Source of the DNA: Shigella phage ESh32 | Sequence record: ON528742 | Direction: 5' to 3' (one strand) | DNA length: 64,000 nt | In this document: positions 10,532 to 63,864 of the stretch, piece after piece | Numbering within the stretch: the first letter of the stretch is position 1 | Layout of the letters: each line of letters starts with the position of its first letter | Notes under the pieces: generated by a model | Database searches by the model: none | The model's input: the letters and a program-made list of their open reading frames with translations, nothing else | Told to the model about the DNA's origin: nothing | Made by a program: the position numbers and the translations under genes

Positions 10532-10554
10532 TTTCAAAAATTTTTCACAAAGTT

Positions 10555-10584
10555 GTTTACAAGCATAAAGCTTTATGGTACTAT
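10555..10584 (+). promoter_or_regulatory. T4-type early promoter with A/T-rich upstream element (cassette copy A)
   Basis: aaaaatttttcacaaagttgtttacaag ... atggtactat. Confidence 0.6.
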
Positions 10585-10618
10585 ACAACTATCAACTGAT
10601 ACGGATTTGGAGAATAAA

Positions 10619-11587
10619 ATGAAAACTGTAACTATCAATAAGGGTATCTACTTCGGTAAAGAAATCTCTGGAACTTTTGAGCTCTTAGGCGAATGGTTCC
10701 CAGATAATGCTCCGGTAGATGCACAAGGAGATGGTAAAGTTTTTGTTGAAATTGACGGTAAACGTCGCGGTGTTTGGGTTTACAAATCAGACATTTCATA
10801 TGATGGTGTAAAAGTTGAAGAAGTTAAAGAATCATATGAAGATATGAAAACCCGCATTAATAAAAGATTTAATGTTATGGGAATGATGACGAATGGTATT
10901 ATTAACGGAAACATTCGTTCATTAATTATCTCTGGTGCGGCGGGTATTGGTAAAACGTATTCTTTAGATAAAGCTTTAAATAAAGCAAATGATATTGGAT
11001 ACATTGAATATAAAAGCATTAACGGTAAAATCTCCGGTATCGGTCTTTATGAGCAGCTTTGGAATAATCGTGAAGAGAATTCTGTCCTTTTGATTGATGA
11101 TGTGGATGTTTTCTCTGATATGGACATTCTTAATCTTCTGAAAGCTGCTCTGGACACCGGAGAGACCCGTAAAGTCTGCTGGAGCACCGCATCTTCTTAC
11201 TTAGAAGAAAAAGGCATTGAGCGTGAGTTTGAATTTAAAGGAACGATTGTTTTTATCACAAACGTTGACATTGACCGCGAATTAGACCGTGGTACTAAAC
11301 TTGCTCCACATTTACAAGCATTAGTGTCCCGCTCAGTTTATTTGGATTTGGGTGTTCACACTAATGAAGAAATTATGGTCAGGGTTGAAGATGTTATTCT
11401 TTCAACTGACATGATGCAAAAGCGCGGTCTTTCTGATGAAGAAACTTATAAAGCATTATCATGGATGAAAGTCAATGTTAATCGTTTACGCAATGTTTCA
11501 CTGCGTACTGCTCTTTATCTTGCTGACTTTATTATGACCGACAAAAACGGTTGGGAAGAAATTGCTGAAACGGTATTATTAAAATGA
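10619..11587 (+). CDS. AAA+/P-loop ATPase
   Basis: Walker A GAAGIGKTY, Walker B VLLIDDVD; ATG at 10619 after GGAG in the conserved leader. Confidence 0.65.
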   Translation: MKTVTINKGIYFGKEISGTFELLGEWFPDNAPVDAQGDGKVFVEIDGKRRGVWVYKSDISYDGVKVEEVKESYEDMKTRINKRFNVMGMMTNGIINGNIRSLIISGAAGIGKTYSLDKALNKANDIGYIEYKSINGKISGIGLYEQLWNNREENSVLLIDDVDVFSDMDILNLLKAALDTGETRKVCWSTASSYLEEKGIEREFEFKGTIVFITNVDIDRELDRGTKLAPHLQALVSRSVYLDLGVHTNEEIMVRVEDVILSTDMMQKRGLSDEETYKALSWMKVNVNRLRNVSLRTALYLADFIMTDKNGWEEIAETVLLK

Positions 11588-12385: not shown

Positions 12386-12688
12386 ATGTTATACTCAAAG
12401 GCTCGTGAAATTTACGAAACTAAAATTAAAGAAGCAGTATTTCAGTTCGCAACAACAATGCGATGGACCAATGATTGGGAATATTCAAAAAATCATAAGA
12501 AGCCCCTGGTGACAAGAAAGGCTCATATGTTAGTGTTAATAGACCGTGAGCAGATTAAAGCCCGAGAAGCTCTCCAGAATCATAAAAAGGCTGCCTTTGA
12601 ATGGTTTATGGATAACACTGCTCCTGAGACTAAGAAAGCAGTGAGCGCGTGGTTCAGTGGAAAAAATTGTGAAAGAAGTTTCTTTTAG
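12386..12688 (+). CDS. hypothetical protein
   Basis: ORF 12374..12688; start at 12386 preferred for spacing from GGAGG, 12374 possible. Confidence 0.45.
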   Translation: MLYSKAREIYETKIKEAVFQFATTMRWTNDWEYSKNHKKPLVTRKAHMLVLIDREQIKAREALQNHKKAAFEWFMDNTAPETKKAVSAWFSGKNCERSFF

Positions 12689-24424: not shown

Positions 24425-24625
24425 ATGAATCCTGAATCTATGTTATCGCAAAAGCTTCGTGAAGAACGCGCCAAATTTTTCCAGAACATGAAACACAATG
24501 GTATTGAGGATGAAGTTTTTCTAAATTGGTTCTGGAATAATAAGTATGCAGCATGCGAAGGAGCTTTGTCATTGTCAGTCGCAATGATGTACGAAGGCTG
24601 GAAGGGTGCCAAACAGTTTAGCTAA
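24425..24625 (+). CDS. hypothetical protein
   Basis: 66-aa ORF. Confidence 0.5.
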   Translation: MNPESMLSQKLREERAKFFQNMKHNGIEDEVFLNWFWNNKYAACEGALSLSVAMMYEGWKGAKQFS

Positions 24626-24642
24626 GGGCTTCGGCCCTTTTT
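24624..24642 (+). terminator. intrinsic terminator (AAGGGCUUCGGCCCUU hairpin)
   Basis: aagggcttcggccctt + ttt. Confidence 0.7.
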
Positions 24643-24677
24643 GGATAATAAAATTTTAACGTAATTGAGGATAATGT

Positions 24678-27060: not shown

Positions 27061-28263
27061 ATGAAAGTATGTATTTTTATGGCTCGAGGTCTTGAAGGTT
27101 GTGGTGTAACAAAATTCTCACTCGAGCAACGTGATTGGTTTATTAAAAATGGTCATGAAGTGACTTTGGTTTATGCTAAAGATAAATCATTTACTCGTAA
27201 TTGCGCGCATGATTATAAATCATTTTCAATTCCGGTTTTATTGGCAAAAGAATACGATAAAACACTTAAGCTGGTAAATGATTGTGATATTCTAATTATC
27301 AATTCAGTTCCTGCTACTTCGGTTGAAGAAGACACTATTAATAACTATAAAAAAATTATTGATAACATTAAACCTTCTGTTCGTGTTGTAGTTTATCAGC
27401 ATGACCATTCTTCTCTTTCTTTGCGTCGAAATTTGGGATTAGAAGAAACTGTTCGTCGAGCTGATGTTATTTTTAGCCATTCTGATAATGGTGATTTTAA
27501 TAAAGTTCTGATGAAAGAATGGTATCCTGAAACAGTTTCTCTGTTTGATGATATTGAAGAAGCACCGACCGTATATAACTTTCAGCCTCCTATGGATATT
27601 GCGAAAGTTCGATCAACCTATTGGAAAGATGTTTCTGAAATTAATATGAATATCAACCGTTGGATTGGTCGTACGACTACATGGAAAGGTTTTTATCAGA
27701 TGTTTGATTTTCACGAAAAACATCTTAAACCTGCAGGACTAAGTACTATTATGGAAGGTCTGGAACGTTCTCCAGCGTTCATTCCTATTAAAGAAAAAGG
27801 AATTCCATACGAGTATTATCGTCTTCATCAAGTAGACCAAATTAAAATTGCTCCTAATTTGCCAACGCAAATTCTTGACCGTTATGTAAATAGCGAAATG
27901 CTTGAACGTATGAGTAAATCCGGTTTTGGTTATCAGTTGAGTAAGTTGGATAAAAAATATCTACAGCGCTCTTTAGAATATACTCATCTCGAGCTTGGTG
28001 CATGTGGAACAATTCCGGTATTTTGGAAATCTACTGGCGAAAATTTAAAATTCCGTGTTGATAATACTCCTTTGACCTCGCATGATAGCGGTATCATTTG
28101 GTTTGATGAAAATGATATGGAATCAACATTTGAACGTATTAAAGAACTGTCATCTGACCGAGCTCTTTATGACCGTGAGCGAGAAAAAGCATATGAATTT
28201 TTGTATCAGCACCAAGATTCAAGCTTCTGCTTTAAAGAACAGTTTGACATTATTACAAAATAA
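27061..28263 (+). CDS. a-gt: DNA alpha-glucosyltransferase
   Basis: 400 aa; matches remembered T4 alpha-gt (CIFMARGLEGCGVTKFSLEQRDWFIKNGHEVTLVYAKDKSF...). Confidence 0.9.
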   Translation: MKVCIFMARGLEGCGVTKFSLEQRDWFIKNGHEVTLVYAKDKSFTRNCAHDYKSFSIPVLLAKEYDKTLKLVNDCDILIINSVPATSVEEDTINNYKKIIDNIKPSVRVVVYQHDHSSLSLRRNLGLEETVRRADVIFSHSDNGDFNKVLMKEWYPETVSLFDDIEEAPTVYNFQPPMDIAKVRSTYWKDVSEINMNINRWIGRTTTWKGFYQMFDFHEKHLKPAGLSTIMEGLERSPAFIPIKEKGIPYEYYRLHQVDQIKIAPNLPTQILDRYVNSEMLERMSKSGFGYQLSKLDKKYLQRSLEYTHLELGACGTIPVFWKSTGENLKFRVDNTPLTSHDSGIIWFDENDMESTFERIKELSSDRALYDREREKAYEFLYQHQDSSFCFKEQFDIITK

Positions 28264-28280
28264 AGGGCTTCGGCCCTTTA
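28263..28280 (+). terminator. UUCG-loop hairpin terminator
   Basis: aagggcttcggccctt directly after alpha-gt stop. Confidence 0.6.
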
Positions 28281-28302
28281 GCTTTATACGGAGTTTGATA
28301 TA

Positions 28303-32283: not shown

Positions 32284-32970
32284 ATGAAACTGTCTAAAGA
32301 TACACTGAATATTTTGAAAAATTTCGCTACTATTAACTCCGGTATTATGCTTAAATCCGGTCAATTTATTATGACTCGCGCAGTTAATGGTACAACTTAT
32401 GCGGAAGCAAATATTTCTGACGTTATTGATTTTGATGTAGCAATTTACGATTTGAACGGTTTTCTCGGTATTCTGTCTCTAGTTAATGATGATGCAGAAA
32501 TTTCCCAGTCAGAAGATGGAAATATTAAAATTGCTGATGCTCGCTCAACAATTTTTTGGCCAGCAGCCGATCCGAGTACAGTAGTTGCTCCTAATAAACC
32601 AATTCCATTCCCGGTAGCATCTGTTGTTACTGAAATTAAAGCTGAAGACCTTCAACAGCTGTTGCGTGTATCTCGTGGTCTGCAAATTGATACAATTGCT
32701 ATCACGGTAAAAGAAGGTAAAATCGTAATTAACGGTTTTAATAAAGTAGAAGATTCTGCTTTGACTCGTGTTAAATATTCTTTGACTCTTGGTGATTATG
32801 ATGGTGAAAATACATTTAATTTCATTATCAATATGGCAAATATGAAAATGCAACCAGGAAATTATAAACTTCTGCTCTGGGCAAAAGGTAAACAAGGTGC
32901 TGCTAAATTTGAAGGTGAACACGCGAATTATGTAGTAGCTCTTGAAGCTGATTCTACCCACGATTTTTAA
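32284..32970 (+). CDS. 45: sliding clamp gp45
   Basis: 228 aa; matches remembered T4 gp45. Confidence 0.9.
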   Translation: MKLSKDTLNILKNFATINSGIMLKSGQFIMTRAVNGTTYAEANISDVIDFDVAIYDLNGFLGILSLVNDDAEISQSEDGNIKIADARSTIFWPAADPSTVVAPNKPIPFPVASVVTEIKAEDLQQLLRVSRGLQIDTIAITVKEGKIVINGFNKVEDSALTRVKYSLTLGDYDGENTFNFIINMANMKMQPGNYKLLLWAKGKQGAAKFEGEHANYVVALEADSTHDF

Positions 32971-32973
32971 TAG

Positions 32974-32990
32974 AGGGCTTCGGCCCTTTA
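32974..32990 (+). terminator. UUCG-loop hairpin (terminator or attenuator)
   Basis: agggcttcggccct followed by ttataattt. Confidence 0.5.
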
Positions 32991-33021
32991 TAATTTACAC
33001 TAAAACTTGAATGAGGAAATT

Positions 33022-33981
33022 ATGATTACCGTAAATGAAAAAGAACACATTCTTGAACAGAAATATCGTCCATCTACTATCGATGAATGTATTCTTCCCG
33101 CCTTTGATAAAGAAACCTTTAAATCTATTACAAGTAAAGGTAAGATTCCACATATTATTCTTCATTCTCCTTCTCCAGGAACAGGTAAAACAACTGTAGC
33201 AAAAGCATTGTGTCATGATGTAAATGCTGATATGATGTTTGTGAATGGATCAGATTGTAAAATTGATTTCGTTCGTGGTCCTTTGACTAATTTTGCCAGT
33301 GCAGCTTCATTTGATGGTCGTCAAAAAGTAATCGTTATTGATGAATTTGACCGCTCAGGTTTAGCAGAATCTCAGCGACATCTTCGTTCCTTTATGGAAG
33401 CTTATAGTTCAAACTGTAGTATTATTATTACTGCTAACAATATTGATGGTATTATTAAACCGCTTCAGTCACGCTGCCGAGTTATTACATTCGGTCAACC
33501 GACCGATGAAGATAAAATTGAAATGATGAAGCAGATGATTCGTCGATTGACTGAAATCTGCAAGCATGAAGGAATTGCTATAGCTGATATGAAAGTTGTA
33601 GCAGCTTTGGTTAAAAAGAATTTTCCTGATTTTCGTAAAACTATTGGCGAGCTCGATAGTTATTCATCTAAAGGTGTTTTGGATGCTGGTATTTTATCAC
33701 TGGTTACTAACGATCGTGGTGCTATTGATGATGTTCTTGAGTCTCTCAAAAATAAAGATGTTAAACAACTCAGAGCTTTAGCACCAAAATATGCAGCTGA
33801 TTATTCGTGGTTCGTGGGTAAACTTGCCGAAGAAATCTATTCACGTGTAACTCCACAAAGTATTATTCGTATGTACGAAATTGTTGGTGAAAATAATCAG
33901 TATCATGGTATTGCAGCTAACACTGAATTACATTTAGCTTATCTTTTCATTCAATTAGCATGTGAAATGCAGTGGAAGTGA
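33022..33981 (+). CDS. 44: clamp loader large subunit gp44 (AAA+)
   Basis: Walker A SPGTGKTT; 319 aa from ATG at 33022 (track ORF 33007..33981). Confidence 0.9.
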
Positions 33982-37975: not shown

Positions 37976-38057
37976 ATACAAGTAATATAAATCTATACTT
38001 ATGAAAAACAGATGATTCTGGACCTTTAGAATTCATTAAAAATTTTTTCACAAAACT

Positions 38058-38088
38058 GTTTACAAGACTGTTCTTCCATGGTACTATA
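38058..38088 (+). promoter_or_regulatory. T4-type early promoter (cassette copy C)
   Basis: aattttttcacaaaactgtttacaag ... atggtactat. Confidence 0.6.
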
Positions 38089-38124
38089 TCAATATCAACT
38101 ACTGATACGGATTTGGAGAATGAA

Positions 38125-38505
38125 ATGAAAATCGCTATTTTGGTTATTGCATTAGGTCTTACTGGTTGTGTGGCTCAAGGACCGGTAGTAAATCAGTCTG
38201 ATGTAGGAAAAATTGTAAACTGTTCAAGCAAATTTTATAATCCTAATGTCAAGTGTTATAAAGAAGCTCCAAATCAAACAGTCGAACAAATGCAGGCGAA
38301 TTTTGACGAAGCTATTCGTCCAGATGAATCTGCTCAAGCATATCGTAATTCTGATGTAATTACACGCGAAGAAAAAATTGAAAACTACTGCGCCGAGCTT
38401 TGGGCTAATTGGGCTAATAATTACCAATGGCGTACTGGTAAAAATGCTCCGATGGAGTATGTAGTGAATTCTTATAATTCATGTGTAAAAAATTTGACTA
38501 AGTGA
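38125..38505 (+). CDS. lipoprotein
   Basis: signal peptide with lipobox LTGC; ATG at 38125 (track ORF starts at TTG 38113). Confidence 0.55.
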   Translation: MKIAILVIALGLTGCVAQGPVVNQSDVGKIVNCSSKFYNPNVKCYKEAPNQTVEQMQANFDEAIRPDESAQAYRNSDVITREEKIENYCAELWANWANNYQWRTGKNAPMEYVVNSYNSCVKNLTK

Positions 38506-44384: not shown

Positions 44385-45017
44385 ATGATTTATTATATGC
44401 ACAAAAATCCACCGTTTAAATACGGTAAATTTCCTGATGCACAATGTTATAATATAACGCCTGATGAAAATAACCGTGGATATCTTATTGGCACAATTTT
44501 TGTAATTGTTAAAGATAACGAAATCGTTGCCTGGGCAGATTTTAAAGGTACAACACATGATGTTAATCCGGTGCCTTTCACATATTACAATATAATGGAT
44601 TTGGCATATGATTATAATTGGTTTAATCATGACACGTTGGCTCATATTGAAGGTGTAGGATTTGACATCTCTTATTCTAGCTACTCGTTGTGTCCTATGA
44701 GTCGGGCTCATAAAGAACCTGAATATTTTTCATTTAGGAAACGTGTAAACTTTAAACGCAACACAGAGTATGTCGGTGGAATCTTTGTTAAAGATAATCG
44801 AATTATTCGTATTAATTATCCTTTGAGCGTTAGTCAAAAAGATATTGATGTTGATTTAGATTTCACTGAAAATAATATTAATCATATTGCTTCTGTGTAT
44901 TTTGGTATCGATCACAAAATTGTAATATGTGGATATGAATTACCGTTTGAAGAACAGTCTAAAGTAAATGTTTCTATTGACGATCAAATTTTTAATGCTT
45001 TTATGAATAAAGGTTAA
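44385..45017 (+). CDS. hypothetical protein (shares C-terminal motif with next gene)
   Basis: ORF 44376..45017 (GTG 44376); ends ...SIDDQIFNAFMNKG. Confidence 0.55.
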   Translation: MIYYMHKNPPFKYGKFPDAQCYNITPDENNRGYLIGTIFVIVKDNEIVAWADFKGTTHDVNPVPFTYYNIMDLAYDYNWFNHDTLAHIEGVGFDISYSSYSLCPMSRAHKEPEYFSFRKRVNFKRNTEYVGGIFVKDNRIIRINYPLSVSQKDIDVDLDFTENNINHIASVYFGIDHKIVICGYELPFEEQSKVNVSIDDQIFNAFMNKG

Positions 45018-45018
45018 T

Positions 45019-45375
45019 ATGTATAGTTCTGAATTTTCATATTTAAAAATGGAAAAAATTTCATACGATTTTATAGATGAAAAGGTTTATTATAGTTTCC
45101 ATGAACCACGTTTTAATAGTGAGGTTGGGTTTATTGTAGTAAAAGACAATTTCATTTTAAAGATATATTCGGCATTAAAGGATTTTCACTACGAAAATAT
45201 TAACCTAAAATTTGATAAAGAAAACGTTCGTAATTGTGCAGTAACAATTACAGGAAATAAAGGTACGTGTGTTATGTTATCTGATGAAATTAATGATTTG
45301 CTAAATGATGCCGAAAAGGTTGCTATTCCATCTATTGATGACCAAATTTTTAATGCTTTTATGAATAGAGGTTAA
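45019..45375 (+). CDS. hypothetical protein (shares C-terminal motif with previous gene)
   Basis: 118 aa ending ...SIDDQIFNAFMNRG. Confidence 0.55.
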   Translation: MYSSEFSYLKMEKISYDFIDEKVYYSFHEPRFNSEVGFIVVKDNFILKIYSALKDFHYENINLKFDKENVRNCAVTITGNKGTCVMLSDEINDLLNDAEKVAIPSIDDQIFNAFMNRG

Positions 45376-45376
45376 T

Positions 45377-45541
45377 ATGAAAACATATAAAGAATTTATT
45401 AAAGAAGATATGGTAGCTGGAGATTCAGGTGGTAATCCTGAAAATATCTCTACTGGAACAACATCAGGTGCTGTAGTAAATAAAGGTCCTGAACAGATTC
45501 CTAAAAAGAAAAAAGAGGAATCTAAAGAAAAAGAAGAGTAA
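45377..45541 (+). CDS. possible lysine-rich small protein
   Basis: 54 codons read from sequence. Confidence 0.4.
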   Translation: MKTYKEFIKEDMVAGDSGGNPENISTGTTSGAVVNKGPEQIPKKKKEESKEKEE

Positions 45542-54087: not shown

Positions 54088-54322
54088 ATTAAGTTTGCAT
54101 CAGTTTAAATCTCTTATGACAAATGTTAAAGCTGTCATTGAGGAAAATTCTAGTCCTGAAAATATTACTATTCGCGAAAAAGCTTTAAAGATAGTATACA
54201 GTCTTGAAGAGATACAAAAAGATATTGAATCTATGGCAAAATTTATTGATGAGCCTATTAATAAAGTTTATATCCAAGATTATACTGTAGGTCAAATTCG
54301 CGATTTAGCAAGGAAAATTTAA
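54080..54322 (+). CDS. hypothetical protein (tandem paralog)
   Basis: ORF 54047..54322; ATG at 54080; ...VYIQDYTVGQIRDLARKI parallels ...VTISDYVLGEISHLYKAV upstream. Confidence 0.45.
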   Translation: MIELSLHQFKSLMTNVKAVIEENSSPENITIREKALKIVYSLEEIQKDIESMAKFIDEPINKVYIQDYTVGQIRDLARKI

Positions 54323-55005
54323 TGTTTGATTTTATTATAGATTTTGAAACAATGGGAAGCGGTGAAAAAGCAGCTGTTATTGATTTGGCTGTAATTGCTT
54401 TTGACCCTAATCCAGAAGTCGTTGAAACATTTGATGAATTAGTTTCACGTGGCATTAAAATCAAATTTGATTTAAAAAGCCAAAAAGGACATCGTCTTTT
54501 TACTAAAAGCACTATCGAATGGTGGAAGAATCAATCTCCTGAAGCTCGAAAAAATATTGCACCATCCGATGAAGATGTAAGCACTATCGATGGTATTGCA
54601 AAATTTAATGATTACATCAATGCACATAATATCGATCCTTGGAAATCTCAAGGCTGGTGCCGTGGAATGTCGTTTGATTTTCCAATTTTAGTCGATCTCA
54701 TTCGTGATATTCAACGTCTTAATGGTGTTTCTGAGAATGAGCTTGACACATTTAAGTTAGAACCATGTAAATTCTGGAATCAGCGTGATATTCGTACCAG
54801 AATTGAAGCACTTCTGCTTGTTCGTGATATGACAACATGTCCTCTTCCAAAGGGAACCTTAGATGGATTCGTTGCGCATGATTCTATTCATGACTGTGCG
54901 AAAGACATCCTGATGATGAAGTATGCTTTGCGATATGCTATGGGTCTTGAAGATGCTCCGTCAGAGGAAGAATGCGATCCTCTATCTCTTCCAACAAAAC
55001 GATAA
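54322..55005 (+). CDS. dexA: exonuclease A (DEDDh 3'-5' exonuclease)
   Basis: 227 aa; IIDFETMG exo motif; matches remembered T4 DexA. Confidence 0.85.
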   Translation: MFDFIIDFETMGSGEKAAVIDLAVIAFDPNPEVVETFDELVSRGIKIKFDLKSQKGHRLFTKSTIEWWKNQSPEARKNIAPSDEDVSTIDGIAKFNDYINAHNIDPWKSQGWCRGMSFDFPILVDLIRDIQRLNGVSENELDTFKLEPCKFWNQRDIRTRIEALLLVRDMTTCPLPKGTLDGFVAHDSIHDCAKDILMMKYALRYAMGLEDAPSEEECDPLSLPTKR

Positions 55006-56095: not shown

Positions 56096-56124
56096 TTTAC
56101 AAACTCTTGGGATCAGAGTATAAT
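56095..56124 (+). promoter_or_regulatory. T4-type early promoter
   Basis: gtttacaaactcttgggatcagagtataat. Confidence 0.6.
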
Positions 56125-56168: not shown

Positions 56169-56660
56169 ATGAATATTAATATCGGCGAAATTGCTCGTGT
56201 ATCTGATAAATCCCGTTCTAAAGCAGCAGGAAAATTGGTCGAAGTTGTAAGCATTCAGCTTAAACACGGTGTTAAAGATGAAGATTCTGAAGTAAAAGTA
56301 CGTATCATTGCTAAAGATGGAATGTCTAAGCCCCAGTTTGGTTATGTTCGATGGAAATTTCTTGAGCCTGCGTTTTTGAAAGCTGTTCCTGCTAAAGGAA
56401 TTGAAACGATTGATACTTCGCATGTAGGTGTAGACTTTAAGTGGAAACTTGGTCAAGCTATCAAGTTCATTGCTCCTTATGAGTTTGAATTTACCGAAGG
56501 TGGACAACCACTTCCTCGGCGTACTCGCGCTATGTGTGCATACATTACTGATCAATGGGTAGAAGATGGCGTTAAGTTATACAACGCGGTATTTTTAGGA
56601 ACATACAAAGTCATTCCTGAAAGTTGGATTAAACACTATAGCAAAGCTCGCTATGCATAA
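56169..56660 (+). CDS. hypothetical protein (paralog of 55592..56095)
   Basis: C-terminal ...AYITDQWVEDGVKLYNAVFLGTYKVIPES. Confidence 0.5.
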   Translation: MNINIGEIARVSDKSRSKAAGKLVEVVSIQLKHGVKDEDSEVKVRIIAKDGMSKPQFGYVRWKFLEPAFLKAVPAKGIETIDTSHVGVDFKWKLGQAIKFIAPYEFEFTEGGQPLPRRTRAMCAYITDQWVEDGVKLYNAVFLGTYKVIPESWIKHYSKARYA

Positions 56661-56684
56661 AGTTTAAAATTTTTTCATAAAACT

Positions 56685-56714
56685 ATATACATCAGTAGTT
56701 GATTATGGTACTAT
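56685..56714 (+). promoter_or_regulatory. degenerate copy of the early promoter/leader cassette (copy D)
   Basis: ttttttcataaaactatatacatcag ... atggtactat, with -35 degenerated relative to copies A and C. Confidence 0.4.
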
Positions 56715-56832
56715 ATCAATATCAACTACTGATATAGAAAATAATTTGGAGAATAAAATGGAAAATTTGCCAAAGGTGCTGCTACTCTTCTGAAATGCAT
56801 CGCTCCAATGTTCAATTAACGAGGAAATTGTA

Positions 56833-57048
56833 ATGAAACGTAAAATTGTTCAGAACTGCACTAATGACGAATTTGAAGATGTGTTATTCGATCCAGATTT
56901 GGTAGTAGTTCAAAAGGAACACACTGCTAAGTTTACTCACTTGACTTCGGTTTATGTGTATGAAAAGGTTGGGGATAAACAACCAATTTACGGTGTATTT
57001 CGTGAAATCACTGAAGATGGTACAACTTACTGGAAGGAAATTTATTAA
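56833..57048 (+). CDS. hypothetical protein
   Basis: 71 aa; GAGGAAA RBS. Confidence 0.5.
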
Positions 57049-57473
57049 TGGCTATTAAATTTGAAGTTAATAAATGGTATCAATTTAAAAATAAACAAGC
57101 TCAAGAAGATTTTATCAAGGACCATACTGAAAACGGAATTTATGCACGACGTCTTGGTATGGAACCTTTTAGAGTTACAGATATTGACTATCTTGGTCGT
57201 CCTACTAAACTTGTGACATCTAGTGGAAAATTGGCGTTATCTTCTGGTAAAGATATTTTGGATGAAGATTTTATCTGGCTTTCAACGAGTGAAGCCGTGT
57301 TCTTTGATGAAGTGGAAAATCCATACCAGGCAGCTGAAGAGCAAGAGCAGGAAGAGAAAGAGCAAGAACAAATAGAAGATTTCACAGAATTCCCGGTCAT
57401 GAAAGTTACTATTGAAAATAATGAACAGGCATGGTCTTTGTATCAGATGTTGAAAGCACACTTTAAGGAATAA
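57048..57473 (+). CDS. hypothetical protein with acidic C-terminal segment
   Basis: 141 aa, [12 protein letters not shown] tract. Confidence 0.5.
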
Positions 57474-58034: not shown

Positions 58035-58295
58035 ATGAAATATGTTAATCGTTCTATCGCAGCATTAGTATTAGCAGTATCTTTAGTAGGATGTACTGAT
58101 GCTGATAATGCAACCAAAGTTTTATCTTCAAGTGGTTTTACTAATATTGAAATCACTGGATATAATTGGTTTGGTTGTTCTGAAAATGATTTCCAACATA
58201 CTGGATTTCGTGCTATTGGACCTACTGGGCAGAAAGTAGAAGGAACCGTGTGTTCTGGTCTATTCTTCAAGGATTCGACTATCCGTTTTAAATAA
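58035..58295 (+). CDS. lipoprotein
   Basis: ORF 58026..58295 (GTG); ATG at 58035; lipobox LVGC. Confidence 0.5.
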   Translation: MKYVNRSIAALVLAVSLVGCTDADNATKVLSSSGFTNIEITGYNWFGCSENDFQHTGFRAIGPTGQKVEGTVCSGLFFKDSTIRFK

Positions 58296-58296
58296 A

Positions 58297-58313
58297 AGGC
58301 CTTCGGGCCTTTA
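58297..58313 (+). terminator. UUCG-loop hairpin
   Basis: aggccttcgggcct followed by ttagcttta. Confidence 0.55.
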
Positions 58314-58364
58314 GCTTTATGATTGCCGGAGTATAATATTCCCGAAACCAAACGAGGATAAGTG

Positions 58365-60236: not shown

Positions 60237-60440
60237 ATGAAATCATATAGAGTAAATTTAGAACTTTTTGATAAAGCAGTTCATCGAGAATATAGAATCA
60301 TTCAACGCTTTTTCGATATGGGAGAAGCCGAAGAATTTAAAAACCGCTTTAAAGATATTAGAGATAAAATTCAATCCGACACCGCAACTAAAGATGAACT
60401 ACTAGAAGTTGCTGAAGTTATTAAGCGTAATATGAATTAA
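60237..60440 (+). CDS. hypothetical protein
   Basis: 67-aa ORF upstream of rIIA. Confidence 0.5.
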
Positions 60441-60450
60441 TGAGGAAATT

Positions 60451-62628
60451 ATGATTATCACCACTGAAAAAGAAACAATTCTTGGTAATGGTTCTAAATC
60501 AAAAGCATTTAGCATCACAGCATCTCCTAAAGTATTTAAAATTCTGTCATCTGATTTGTATACAAACAAGATTCGTGCAGTAGTCCGTGAATTGATTACC
60601 AACATGATTGATGCCCATGCACTCAATGGAAATCCTGAAAAATTTATCATTCAAGTTCCTGGACGTTTAGATCCACGATTTGTTTGCCGAGATTTTGGTC
60701 CGGGTATGAGTGATTTTGATATTCAGGGTGATGATAATTCTCCTGGTCTGTATAATTCATACTTCAGTTCATCTAAGGCTGAATCTAACGATTTCATTGG
60801 CGGATTTGGTTTAGGTTCTAAATCTCCGTTTAGTTATACTGATACATTTAGTATTACTTCGTGTCATAAAGGTGAAATTCGTGGTTATGTAGCTTACATG
60901 GATGGCGATGGTCCACAAATTAAACCTACATTCGTGAAAGAAATGGGTCCAGATGATAAAACTGGTATTGAAATCGTAGTTCCAGTTGAAGAAAAAGACT
61001 TTAGAAACTTTGCTTATGAAGTTTCTTATATCATGCGACCGTTCAAAGATATGGCTATTATTAATGGTCTTGACCGTGAAATTGATTATTTTCCGGATTT
61101 TGATGATTATTACGGTGTAAATCCAGAAAGATACTGGCCTGATCGTGGTGGATTATATGCTATCTATGGCGGTATTGTTTATCCTATCGATGGTGTTATT
61201 AGAGACCGTAACTGGCTAAGCATTCGCAATGAAGTGAATTACATTAAGTTTCCAATGGGTTCACTTGATATTGCTCCATCACGTGAAGCTCTTTCATTGG
61301 ATGATCGTACTCGTAAAAATATTATTGAACGAGTTAAAGAGCTTAGTGAGAAAGCATTTAATGAAGATGTAAAACGATTTAAAGAATCTACATCTCCCCG
61401 TCACACATATCGTGAATTGATGAAGATGGGGTATTCTGCTCGAGATTATATGATTAGTAATTCAGTCAAATTCACGACTAAAAATCTGTCATATAAAAAG
61501 ATGCAGAGCATGTTTGAACCTGACAGTAAGTTATGTAATGCAGGCGTGGTGTATGAAGTAAATCTTGACCCTCGACTGAAACGCATTAAGCAAAGCCATG
61601 AAACTTCAGCCGTTGCATCAAGTTATCGTCTGTTTGGTATTAATACAACAAAAATTAATATCGTTATTGATAATATTAAAAATCGTGTTAATATTGTCCG
61701 TGGATTAGCACATGCGTTAGATGATAGTGAATTTAATAACACTTTAAATATTCATCACAATGAGCGTCTTCTGTTTATTAATCCGGAAGTAGAATCGCAG
61801 ATTGATTTACTACCTGATATTATGGCAATGTTTGAAAGTGATGAAGTTAACATTCATTATTTGTCAGAAATTGAAGCTTTAGTTAAAAGCTATATTCCAA
61901 AGGTAGTTAAAAGTAAAGCTCCTCGTCCTAAAGCTGCTACAGCATTTAAATTTGAAATTAAAGATGGACGATGGGAAAAAGAGGAACTATTTACGCTCAC
62001 ATCAGAAGCAGATGAAATTACTGGTTATGTAGCGTATATGCATCGTTCTGATATTTTCTCTATGGATGGTACTACATCGCTTTGTCATCCATCTATGAAT
62101 ATTTTGATTCGTATGGCTAATCTTATTGGCATTAATGAATTTTATGTTATTCGTCCGCTTTTACAGAAAAAGGTAAAAGAACTCGGTCAGTGCCAATGTA
62201 TTTTTGAAGCTTTGCGTGATTTATATGTAGATGCTTTTGATGATGTAGATTATGATAAGTATGTAGGTTATTCAAGTTCAGCTCAACGATATATTGATAA
62301 AATTATCAAGTATCCTGAGCTAGATTTTATGATGAAGTACTTCAGTACAGATGAAGTTTCTGAAGAATATACACGACTCGCTAATATAGTTAGTTCATTG
62401 CGCGGTGTATATTTTAATGGTGGAAAAGATACCATCGGTCATGATATCTGGACAGTAACTAATCTTTTTGATGTATTATCAAATAATGCTTCAAAAAACA
62501 GTGATAAAATGGTTGCTGAGTTTACCAAGAAATTCCGTATTGTTTCCGACTTCATCGGATATCGCAACTCTTTAAGTGATGATGAAGTTTCCCAAATCGC
62601 TAAAACTATGAAGGCCCTTGCGGCCTAA
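60451..62628 (+). CDS. rIIA: rIIA protein
   Basis: 725 aa; N-terminal GHKL-like ATPase motifs ([19 protein letters not shown]). Confidence 0.9.
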
Positions 62629-62639
62629 TAAGGAAAATT

Positions 62640-63578
62640 ATGTACAATATTAAATGCCTGACCAAAAACGAACAAGCTGAAATTGTTAAACTGTATTCAA
62701 GCGGTAATTATACTCAGCAGGAATTGGCTGATTGGCAAGGTGTATCGGTTGATACAATCCGTCGTGTTTTGAAAAATGCTGAAGAAGCTAAACGCTCTAA
62801 AGTTACTATTAGCGGTGATATTACAGTTAAAGTTAATAGCGATGCAGTTATTGCTCCAGTTACTAAATCTGACATTATTTGGAATGCATCTAAAAAATTC
62901 ATTTCGATTACTGTCGATGGTGTAACTTATAATGCAACACCTAATACTCATTCAAACTTCCAGGAAATTCTCAATCTGCTTGTAGCGGATAAGCTGGAAG
63001 AAGCGGCACAAAAAATTAATGTTCGTCGCGCTGTTGAAAAATATATTTCCGGCGATGTTCGAATTGAAGGTGGAAGCTTATTCTATCAAAATATTGAATT
63101 GCGGTCTGGTTTGGTTGATCGTATTCTTGATTCGATGGAAAAAGGCGAAAACTTTGAATTTTATTTTCCGTTCTTGGAAAATCTGCTGGAAAACCCAAGC
63201 CAGAAAGCGGTATCTCGACTTTTTGATTTCTTGGTAGCAAACGATATTGAAATTACAGAAGATGGTTACTTCTATGCTTGGAAAGTAGTTCGCAATAATT
63301 ACTTTGACTGTCACTCAAATACCTTTGATAACAGTCCTGGTAAAGTAGTTAAAATGCCGCGTACTCGTGTGAATGACGATGATACACAAACTTGTTCTCG
63401 TGGTCTGCATGTGTGTTCTAAATCTTATATTCGTCACTTCGGTGGTTCAACCAGCCGAGTTGTAAAAGTTAAAGTTCATCCTCGTGATGTAGTATCAATT
63501 CCGATTGATTACAACGACGCTAAAATGCGTACCTGCCAATACGAAGTAATTGAAGACGTTACTGAACAATTTAAATAA
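62640..63578 (+). CDS. rIIB: rIIB protein
   Basis: 312 aa immediately downstream of rIIA; matches remembered T4 rIIB. Confidence 0.9.
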   Translation: MYNIKCLTKNEQAEIVKLYSSGNYTQQELADWQGVSVDTIRRVLKNAEEAKRSKVTISGDITVKVNSDAVIAPVTKSDIIWNASKKFISITVDGVTYNATPNTHSNFQEILNLLVADKLEEAAQKINVRRAVEKYISGDVRIEGGSLFYQNIELRSGLVDRILDSMEKGENFEFYFPFLENLLENPSQKAVSRLFDFLVANDIEITEDGYFYAWKVVRNNYFDCHSNTFDNSPGKVVKMPRTRVNDDDTQTCSRGLHVCSKSYIRHFGGSTSRVVKVKVHPRDVVSIPIDYNDAKMRTCQYEVIEDVTEQFK

Positions 63579-63592
63579 GGGCTTCGGCCCTT
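63577..63592 (+). terminator. UUCG-loop hairpin (no clear T-tract)
   Basis: aagggcttcggccctt overlapping rIIB stop. Confidence 0.4.
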
Positions 63593-63606: not shown

Positions 63607-63801
63607 ATGTTAGGTTATCAAGCACGAGTAAAAGAAGAATACGATCAATTAATGCTCAAAATTAATGCACTGAGCAAATTTTTAGAAAGCGCAAAGTTTC
63701 TAACGGTTAGTGCAGTTGAGCAAGAACTGCTGCTTTCACAGTTCATCTCAATGAAATCTTATGCTGAGTGTCTAGAGAAAAGAATCGCACAATTCAAATA
63801 A
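63607..63801 (+). CDS. hypothetical protein
   Basis: 64-aa ORF. Confidence 0.5.
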   Translation: MLGYQARVKEEYDQLMLKINALSKFLESAKFLTVSAVEQELLLSQFISMKSYAECLEKRIAQFK

Positions 63802-63804
63802 AAT

Positions 63805-63827
63805 AAGGGCTTCGGCCCTTTTGTTTT
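63805..63827 (+). terminator. intrinsic terminator
   Basis: aagggcttcggccctt + ttgtttt. Confidence 0.7.
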
Positions 63828-63864
63828 AAGAGAAATTATGATTCCGACATAAAGGAAAGTCTAA

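Follow-up and report, generated by a model that had tools for sequence, protein, structure and literature searches.

Remains of a small gene lost by internal deletion, very probably behind its own early promoter cassette, between motB and cef of a T4-like phage

We analysed a 64,000-nucleotide stretch of the Shigella phage ESh32 genome (record ON528742; the whole stretch is referred to here as the window). The 168-nt region at 56665-56832, between motB and cef, is very probably the cassette (early promoter, stem-loop and leader) that originally belonged to an 89-codon gene, together with what was left of that gene after a 208-bp deletion. The long "intergenic" spacer between motB and cef of T4 is thus a broken gene; T2 and about half of the sequenced Tequatroviruses still have it intact. 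This bears on comparisons of T4 with T2 and on the search for the function of PHROG 3720, and is of value for annotation, as several records call spurious ORFs over the remnant. The locus also provides a natural series at one site, from intact gene through nonsense allele and internal short-repeat deletion to complete excision, and the series shows accessory-gene loss behind early-promoter cassettes while the cassette is kept. The cassette type is already known, and no new kind of element is revealed.

The motB-cef spacer and the intact gene of related phages

The window derives from a T4-like phage (Tequatrovirus); a 1.4-kb query from the locus matched 542 phage records, almost all of them Tequatrovirus at 90-98% identity. 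The window is oriented opposite to GenBank T4, and its local gene order is dexA (54322-55005), two small ORFs, motB (56169-56660, plus strand; ORF call, Pfam motB, E=6e-94), cef (56821-57048, plus strand, including its own RBS GAGG at 56821-56824, with ATG at 56833; Pfam T4_Cef, E=3e-35), goF (57048-57473), 39.2 and the topoisomerase gene 39. The feature under study sits in the 172-nt spacer that separates its upstream neighbour motB from cef. This region belongs to a dispensable block of T4 that can be deleted without killing the phage (PMC6070864, PMC1702504). No promoter or small gene is annotated at the site in the T4 records NC_000866, AF158101 and M89919, a keyword search of the literature returned no paper on a cef promoter or on the remnant, and the reviews of T4 transcription and post-transcription do not mention cef.

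A preliminary description of the window had noted that an ATG at 56758 opens only an 11-codon ORF and that the real gene, identified here as cef, begins with its own RBS 40 nt later, and the sequence bears out both points. Read directly on the plus strand (56758-56793), the codons are ATG (56758-56760), GAA AAT TTG CCA AAG GTG CTG CTA CTC TTC and TGA (56791-56793), giving MENLPKVLLLF-stop. The same description proposed aligning related phages to see which gene follows the cassette there, and that alignment returned an intact 89-codon gene at the same ATG. In wV7, AR1 and T2, a 270-nt gene annotated as "hypothetical protein" lies between motB and cef and starts at the exact cassette ATG, and in RB9 and others the gene is likewise intact behind the same promoter, leader and ATG. 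Of 506 records matching a 501-nt wV7 query that spans the end of motB, the intact gene and the start of cef, 261 carry the gene at full length (at least 95% identity). The encoded protein matches phrog_3720 (E=3e-46), a PHROG of unknown function, and has no match in Pfam, NCBIfam, PADLOC or PDB sequences.

The variable sites of the 89-codon gene are distributed over the three codon positions as 4/1/16, a pattern that shows the ORF to be under purifying selection. By tblastn, about 140 homologues of about 41% identity were found in T4-like phages of Klebsiella. In the Klebsiella Jiaodavirus K65PH164 (locus L040, 1420-1779), a homologue of 41% identity follows a TATACA-N17-TATTAT promoter and an identical GGAGAATAAAATG; since this homologue has the same promoter type, TATACA and RBS, these belong natively to the 89-codon gene. 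In K65PH164 this homologue is flanked by small genes of unknown function instead of motB and cef. The gene that was lost was evidently a real gene.

Two further allele types occur among the relatives. Shigella phage Sf22 (L026, 401-670) has a full-length copy in which codon 59 is changed from CGA to TGA and which is annotated as a 58-codon protein; this nonsense change is an independent inactivation of the gene. A third type, found in only four records (ES26, at about 608-660 of L022, ES12, PYps14T and PYps15T), has neither the ORF nor its remnant, and the cassette RBS is fused to the cef ATG (CTTGGAGAATGTAATGAAAC); this is likewise an independent loss of the gene and resembles an exchange at the 3' end of the cassette, as in the promoter-early stem-loop (PeSL) cassettes discussed below.

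A deletion between short direct repeats

In the window, as in VEc20 and T4, only the two ends of the gene can be aligned, its first 11 nt and its last 51 nt, and the 208 nt between them are missing; reference T4 carries the same junction as the window. The junction is held by ATG(G/T)AAAA(T/C)T(T/C) (56758-56768, plus strand), a hybrid direct-repeat copy that corresponds in the alignments to the first 11 nt of the gene. It is followed at 56769-56819, also on the plus strand, by the last 51 nt, identified from the alignments and from a simulated deletion. These 51 nt retain the codons for AKGAATLLK.IAP.FN and the original TAA (56817-56819), now in the wrong frame. The loss of 208 nt, a number not divisible by three, puts the 3' fragment out of the frame set by the start codon, and a stop follows after 11 codons; a ribosome starting there would read four original codons' worth and then enter the last 51 nt of the gene out of frame. 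The 11-codon peptide is an accidental out-of-frame fusion made by the deletion, and it is decaying. The deletion left cef untouched.

In the intact gene the deleted segment is bounded by imperfect direct repeats, ATGGAAAA(T/C)TT at the start codon and ATGTAAAATT(C/T) at gene position 209. The repeats stand at gene positions 1 and 209, 208 nt apart, in all eight full-length alleles examined; they are identical at 9-10 of 11 positions, and the deleted form retains a single hybrid copy. Deleting in silico between the repeats of phage P8 yields the 62-nt remnant of OES_C-3 with no mismatches and that of the window with two, and the same operation on T2 yields the T4 remnant with two mismatches. 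The 208 bp were probably lost by replication slippage or by short-homology recombination between the 11-nt repeats. Deletion between short direct repeats is a mechanism long known in T4 and E. coli, and the T4 rII deletion studies are classic examples. Compared with the spontaneous deletions between short direct repeats described by Albertini et al. (1982, as cited in PMC4122927), the missing segment is here likewise flanked by 11-nt repeats with a hybrid copy kept, and nothing essential differs.

The preliminary description had read the site as a scar where the original cargo gene of the cassette was deleted or replaced. Deletion is upheld by the intact gene at the same ATG in relatives and replacement is not, and the deletion proves to be internal to the gene, between short direct repeats, rather than at the borders of the cassette. 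The opposite polarity, with the short form ancestral and 208 nt gained by insertion in T2, wV7 and others, might be entertained, as a two-state alignment alone gives no direction to an indel and the short form is found in about half of the records. Such an insert would, however, need to create an in-frame 89-codon ORF that is under purifying selection, and full-length homologues with a similar promoter and an identical RBS exist in another genus. Moreover, a hybrid repeat copy in the short form and repeats flanking the segment in the long form are the signature of a deletion, and it is the short form that accumulates frameshifts. We therefore regard a gain by insertion as extremely unlikely. 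There is practically no chance that the junction is a sequencing or assembly artefact of the window, as junction-specific queries found it in at least 86 independent records (64 of the window type and 22 of the T4 type), among them the Sanger-era T4 entries M89919 and AF158101.

The haplotypes next to the junction differ between phages, being TTTGCC / AAAATTTGCC in the window, TTCGCT / AAAATTCGCT in T4 and AAAACTCGCC in sb4, and they match different intact alleles and crossover points. This hints that the deletion may have recurred at this site rather than having a single origin.

Decay of the remnant and conservation of the cassette

An exact-pattern scan of IMG/VR gave only 4 relevant loci out of 11, and alleles were instead sampled from GenBank phage records. 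The sample (loci L001-L039) comprises 21 deletion alleles, 8 full-length alleles and one of the third type; the 29 alleles come from ranked hit lists and are related by descent, and the Fisher tests below overstate their independence. All 21 deletion alleles share the same junction site. Across them, 17 of 59 sites of the remnant are substituted, about five types of indel occur, and reading from the start codon gives 13 distinct "peptides" of 4, 7, 8, 11, 12 or 20 codons. The flanks of the remnant are homologous to the intact gene at the locus, the frame is destroyed and constraint on the remnant is relaxed, as is typical of a pseudogene. The remnant is an ordinary decaying gene fragment and not a conserved upstream ORF.

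The alternative offered by the preliminary description was a regulatory upstream ORF; cef and goF would then be controlled through translation of the short frame or by its peptide product. Like regulatory upstream ORFs, the frame is short and translatable and lies in the 5' leader of downstream genes, with a strong GGAG six nt upstream of its AUG; we infer that the 11 codons are probably translated. The 11-codon length recurs in 12 of the 21 sampled deletion alleles, including T4, in which the ORF reads MENSLKVLILF, and between GGAG and ATG the deletion alleles have substitutions at 1 of 14 sites, compared with 17 of 59 in the remnant. The better preservation of the RBS and ATG leaves room for some residual function in cis. 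Against regulation by the short ORF, neither the sequence nor the length of the peptide is conserved, and GGAG is replaced by GAAG in the deletion alleles S2_01 and YUEEL01; the 13 peptide versions and the lost GGAGs rule out a conserved leader peptide. In further contrast to regulatory upstream ORFs, the position of the stop is not conserved, and the stop lies 40 nt ahead of the start of cef, which has its own GAGG, so that there is neither overlap nor coupling. About half of the relatives have the full gene instead and four records have no ORF there, while the frame, whose origin is a frameshifted gene fragment, is fully explained by the 208-nt deletion. The preliminary description had named, as contradicting its reading, the same arrangement in relatives together with a conserved upstream peptide; the arrangement is indeed common and includes T4, but conservation of the peptide is absent. 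A regulatory upstream ORF is accordingly very unlikely.

The cassette behaves differently from the remnant of its gene. In the cassette core from the -35 through the stem (56675-56733), one site of 59 varies among the 21 related deletion alleles, compared with 17 of 59 for the remnant (Fisher p=4e-5). A second comparison, of 22 related alleles, gives 2 variable sites of 63 in the core and 32 of 72 at the third codon positions of cef (p=7e-9). These p-values are generous given the relatedness of the alleles, yet the contrast is large. TATACA is invariant in the 22 alleles, and both TATACA and the inverted repeat that follows it are identical in phages with the intact gene. The -35 had been described as degenerate. 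As a description this is accurate, since the hexamer is TATACA rather than TTTACA and a promoter scan makes no call, but the unusual -35 and the stem precede the intact gene, and TATACA precedes the Klebsiella-phage homologue, and they are therefore older than the deletion and not part of a scar. The cassette itself is not decaying.

Several records annotate spurious "hypothetical protein" ORFs across the hairpin and remnant (L019, 408-536; L033 and L035, 557-670; L039, 555-662 on the minus strand; and g007c of fPS-2).

Architecture of the cassette

The preliminary description had recognised the cassette as repeated, and repeat families and a six-way alignment within the window confirm the copies. 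Copies at about 10532-10625, 38035-38131 and 56663-56764 (the last being copy D, the one under study) share an A/T-rich tract, TGGTACTATA, the leader CAA.ATCAACT and TTGGAGAAT(A/G)AAATG, and a copy at 12668 shares the promoter part only. Copies C and D do not differ at all in a stretch of about 30 nt that runs from the -10 into the leader. All elements of copy D lie on the plus strand. The upstream A/T-rich tract TTTAAAATTTTTTCATAAAACTA (56663-56685) is UP-element-like, aligns with the other early-promoter copies and varies among phages in the length of its T-run. It is followed by the -35-like hexamer TATACA (56686-56691), which is TTTACA in the other copies and TTTACW in the PST/T4 PeSL consensus. 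A perfect inverted repeat of 13 bp, defined by fold prediction, has its left arm ATCAGTAGTTGAT (56691-56703) within the promoter spacer and its right arm ATCAACTACTGAT at 56721-56733. TATACA and the left arm are unique to copy D within the window, which makes gene conversion from another copy an unlikely source of the invariance of the core. Between the arms, in the loop of the hairpin and 17 nt from the -35, stand TGn and the -10 (TGG TACTAT, 56706-56714), which fits the TAYWAT of the PST/T4 PeSL consensus (PMC4122927). The promoter of copy D is thus TATACA-N17-TACTAT with TGn and one deviation from the -35 consensus, and a simple sigma-70 scan did not call it.

The hairpin of copy D, with the -10 in its loop, has a predicted energy of -20.2 kcal/mol (z=-5.5), and none of 200 shuffled sequences was as stable. 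From the position of the -10, transcription is predicted to start about 7 nt past it, at the first bases of the right arm, and RNA initiated at this promoter would therefore be without the left arm. The simple sigma-70 scan places a promoter of motB itself at 56096 (TTTACA-17-TATAAT), from which the whole cassette would be transcribed by read-through, and the hairpin would form only in this read-through RNA. A reading of the hairpin as an intrinsic terminator was rejected, as no T-run follows it and the scan called no terminator. The SA20RB record annotates it as a rho-independent terminator, though no T-run follows. A scan of 56400-57100 against Rfam gave only two chance-level matches, far below threshold.

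These features correspond to the PeSL cassettes of T4-type phages (Arbiol et al. 2010, PMC2839356; Comeau et al. 2014, PMC4122927). In these, an AT-rich tract, a sigma-70-like promoter (TTTACW-N17-TAYWAT in T4/PST) and a stem-loop, which mostly lies between the -35 and -10 or overlaps the -10, are followed by the Shine-Dalgarno sequence and ATG of a small gene (PMC2839356, PMC4122927). The tested PeSLs of RB49 and phi1 had active promoters, and a stem-loop acted as a terminator or attenuator (PMC2839356, PMC4122927). Copy D corresponds to this plan component by component, with the AT-rich tract, sigma-70-like boxes 17 nt apart (of which the -10, the spacing and TGn fit the consensus), a stable stem-loop overlapping the -10, and GGAG (56748-56751) with ATG (56758) of a small non-essential gene. 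It also lies in a plastic, dispensable region, and ORF gain and loss cluster around such cassettes. It differs from the PeSL consensus in its -35, TATACA instead of TTTACW, and its stem is A/T-rich (ATCAGTAGTTGAT), whereas the stems of RB49 and phi1 are formed by a G-tract and a C-tract and those of PST by AGNA...TCNT. Copy D matches a PeSL-type cassette, with putative promoter and attenuator activity. The 208-bp deletion took place between short repeats inside the cargo ORF and not between two cassettes, and so was not PeSL-mediated.

Other phages combine parts of the cassette with different genes. In EC.W5-4 (L021, 700-1052), the same leader (CTACTGATACAGAAAACAACTTGGAGAATGAAATG) stands behind a canonical TTTACA -35 (TGTTTACA) and before an 87-codon gene that on inspection has no evident similarity to the 89-codon gene; the same leader before unrelated cargo means that the cassette is modular. 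In a Tequatrovirus subgroup consisting of RB5, RB27, ime09, Ac3, CrRp10, GiZh and RB9 (L024 and L031 among the loci), similarity to the query begins only past the end of motB, and the upstream gene is a different, shorter "motB-like" or hypothetical gene, so that the motB side of the cassette is also a swap point.

By analogy with characterised cassettes, the retained cassette probably serves as a weak early promoter that now feeds cef and goF, and its hairpin probably as an attenuator or stabiliser of read-through from motB. A more elaborate proposal, which we consider rather unlikely, is that the cassette is a working regulatory node. In such a node the -10 hairpin would attenuate or stabilise motB read-through, the weak TATACA promoter and a RegB site would set the level and lifetime of cef-goF mRNA, any translation of the short ORF would shield the leader from Rho-dependent polarity or decay, and the ATG.AAAATT repeats would make the gene a deletion hotspot, with more than one loss in the evolution of Tequatrovirus.

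A candidate RegB site in the leader

The Shine-Dalgarno region of the lost gene, GGAGAATAAAA (56748-56758, plus strand), agrees at every position with the 11-nt consensus for RegB/S1 cleavage in T4 early mRNAs, GGAGAAUAAAA (GGAGRAYARAA), as given by Durand et al. (2006, PMC1702504), whose text documents no cleavage at this particular site. The window contains two exact matches to the consensus, where 0.13 are expected. The other exact GGAGAATAAAA, at 10609-10619, is the RBS of cassette copy A before the gene at 10619, and copy C has GGAGAATGAAA. The site in copy D is intergenic, lies in an early region, early transcription being deduced from context, and is unpaired in the minimum-energy folds. 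The GGAG of copy D is probably still a RegB cleavage site, and the two deletion alleles with GAAG indicate that the site is dispensable at least in those phages.

Hairpins at other early promoters and further repeats of the window

Hairpins of the copy D kind are found at 7 of the 16 early promoters of the window, those with -35 starts at 2594, 7612, 12692, 43531, 55013, 56096 and 56686, each formed by pairing of the spacer (left arm) with the leader (right arm) around a loop that holds the -10. Duplexes between a promoter's own spacer and leader have energies of -15 to -23 kcal/mol, against a mean of -7.4 for cross-pairs (permutation p<1e-5). Spacer-leader complementarity was considered as a new general feature and dropped, as stem-loops that overlap the -10 are described as typical of PeSLs by Arbiol et al. 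(2010, PMC2839356). At 2594, 12692 and 55013 the right arm covers the GAGG of the downstream gene, and there read-through RNA would mask the RBS while promoter-initiated RNA would not.

Hairpins of another kind, rich in G+C and with a TTCG loop ((A/G)GGGCTTCGGCCC(T/C)), lie at gene ends at 28257-28287, 32967-32997, 58290-58320 and 63799-63829, and also at 24612-24656 and 63565-63592; they resemble the stable terminators or stabilisers with a UUCG loop that are typical of T4. A 49-nt stretch ending in AGGTTAATATG occurs twice, at 44973-45021 and 45331-45379, 358 nt apart and at 94% identity, which points to a tandem pair of small paralogous genes that share their 3' end and junction. Finally, the gene starts at 33010-33055 and 60439-60484, 27 kb apart, are 83% identical over 46 nt (AATGAGGAAATTATGATTA...GAAAAAGAA..ATTCTTG) and may represent paralogous N-termini or a common translation-initiation module.
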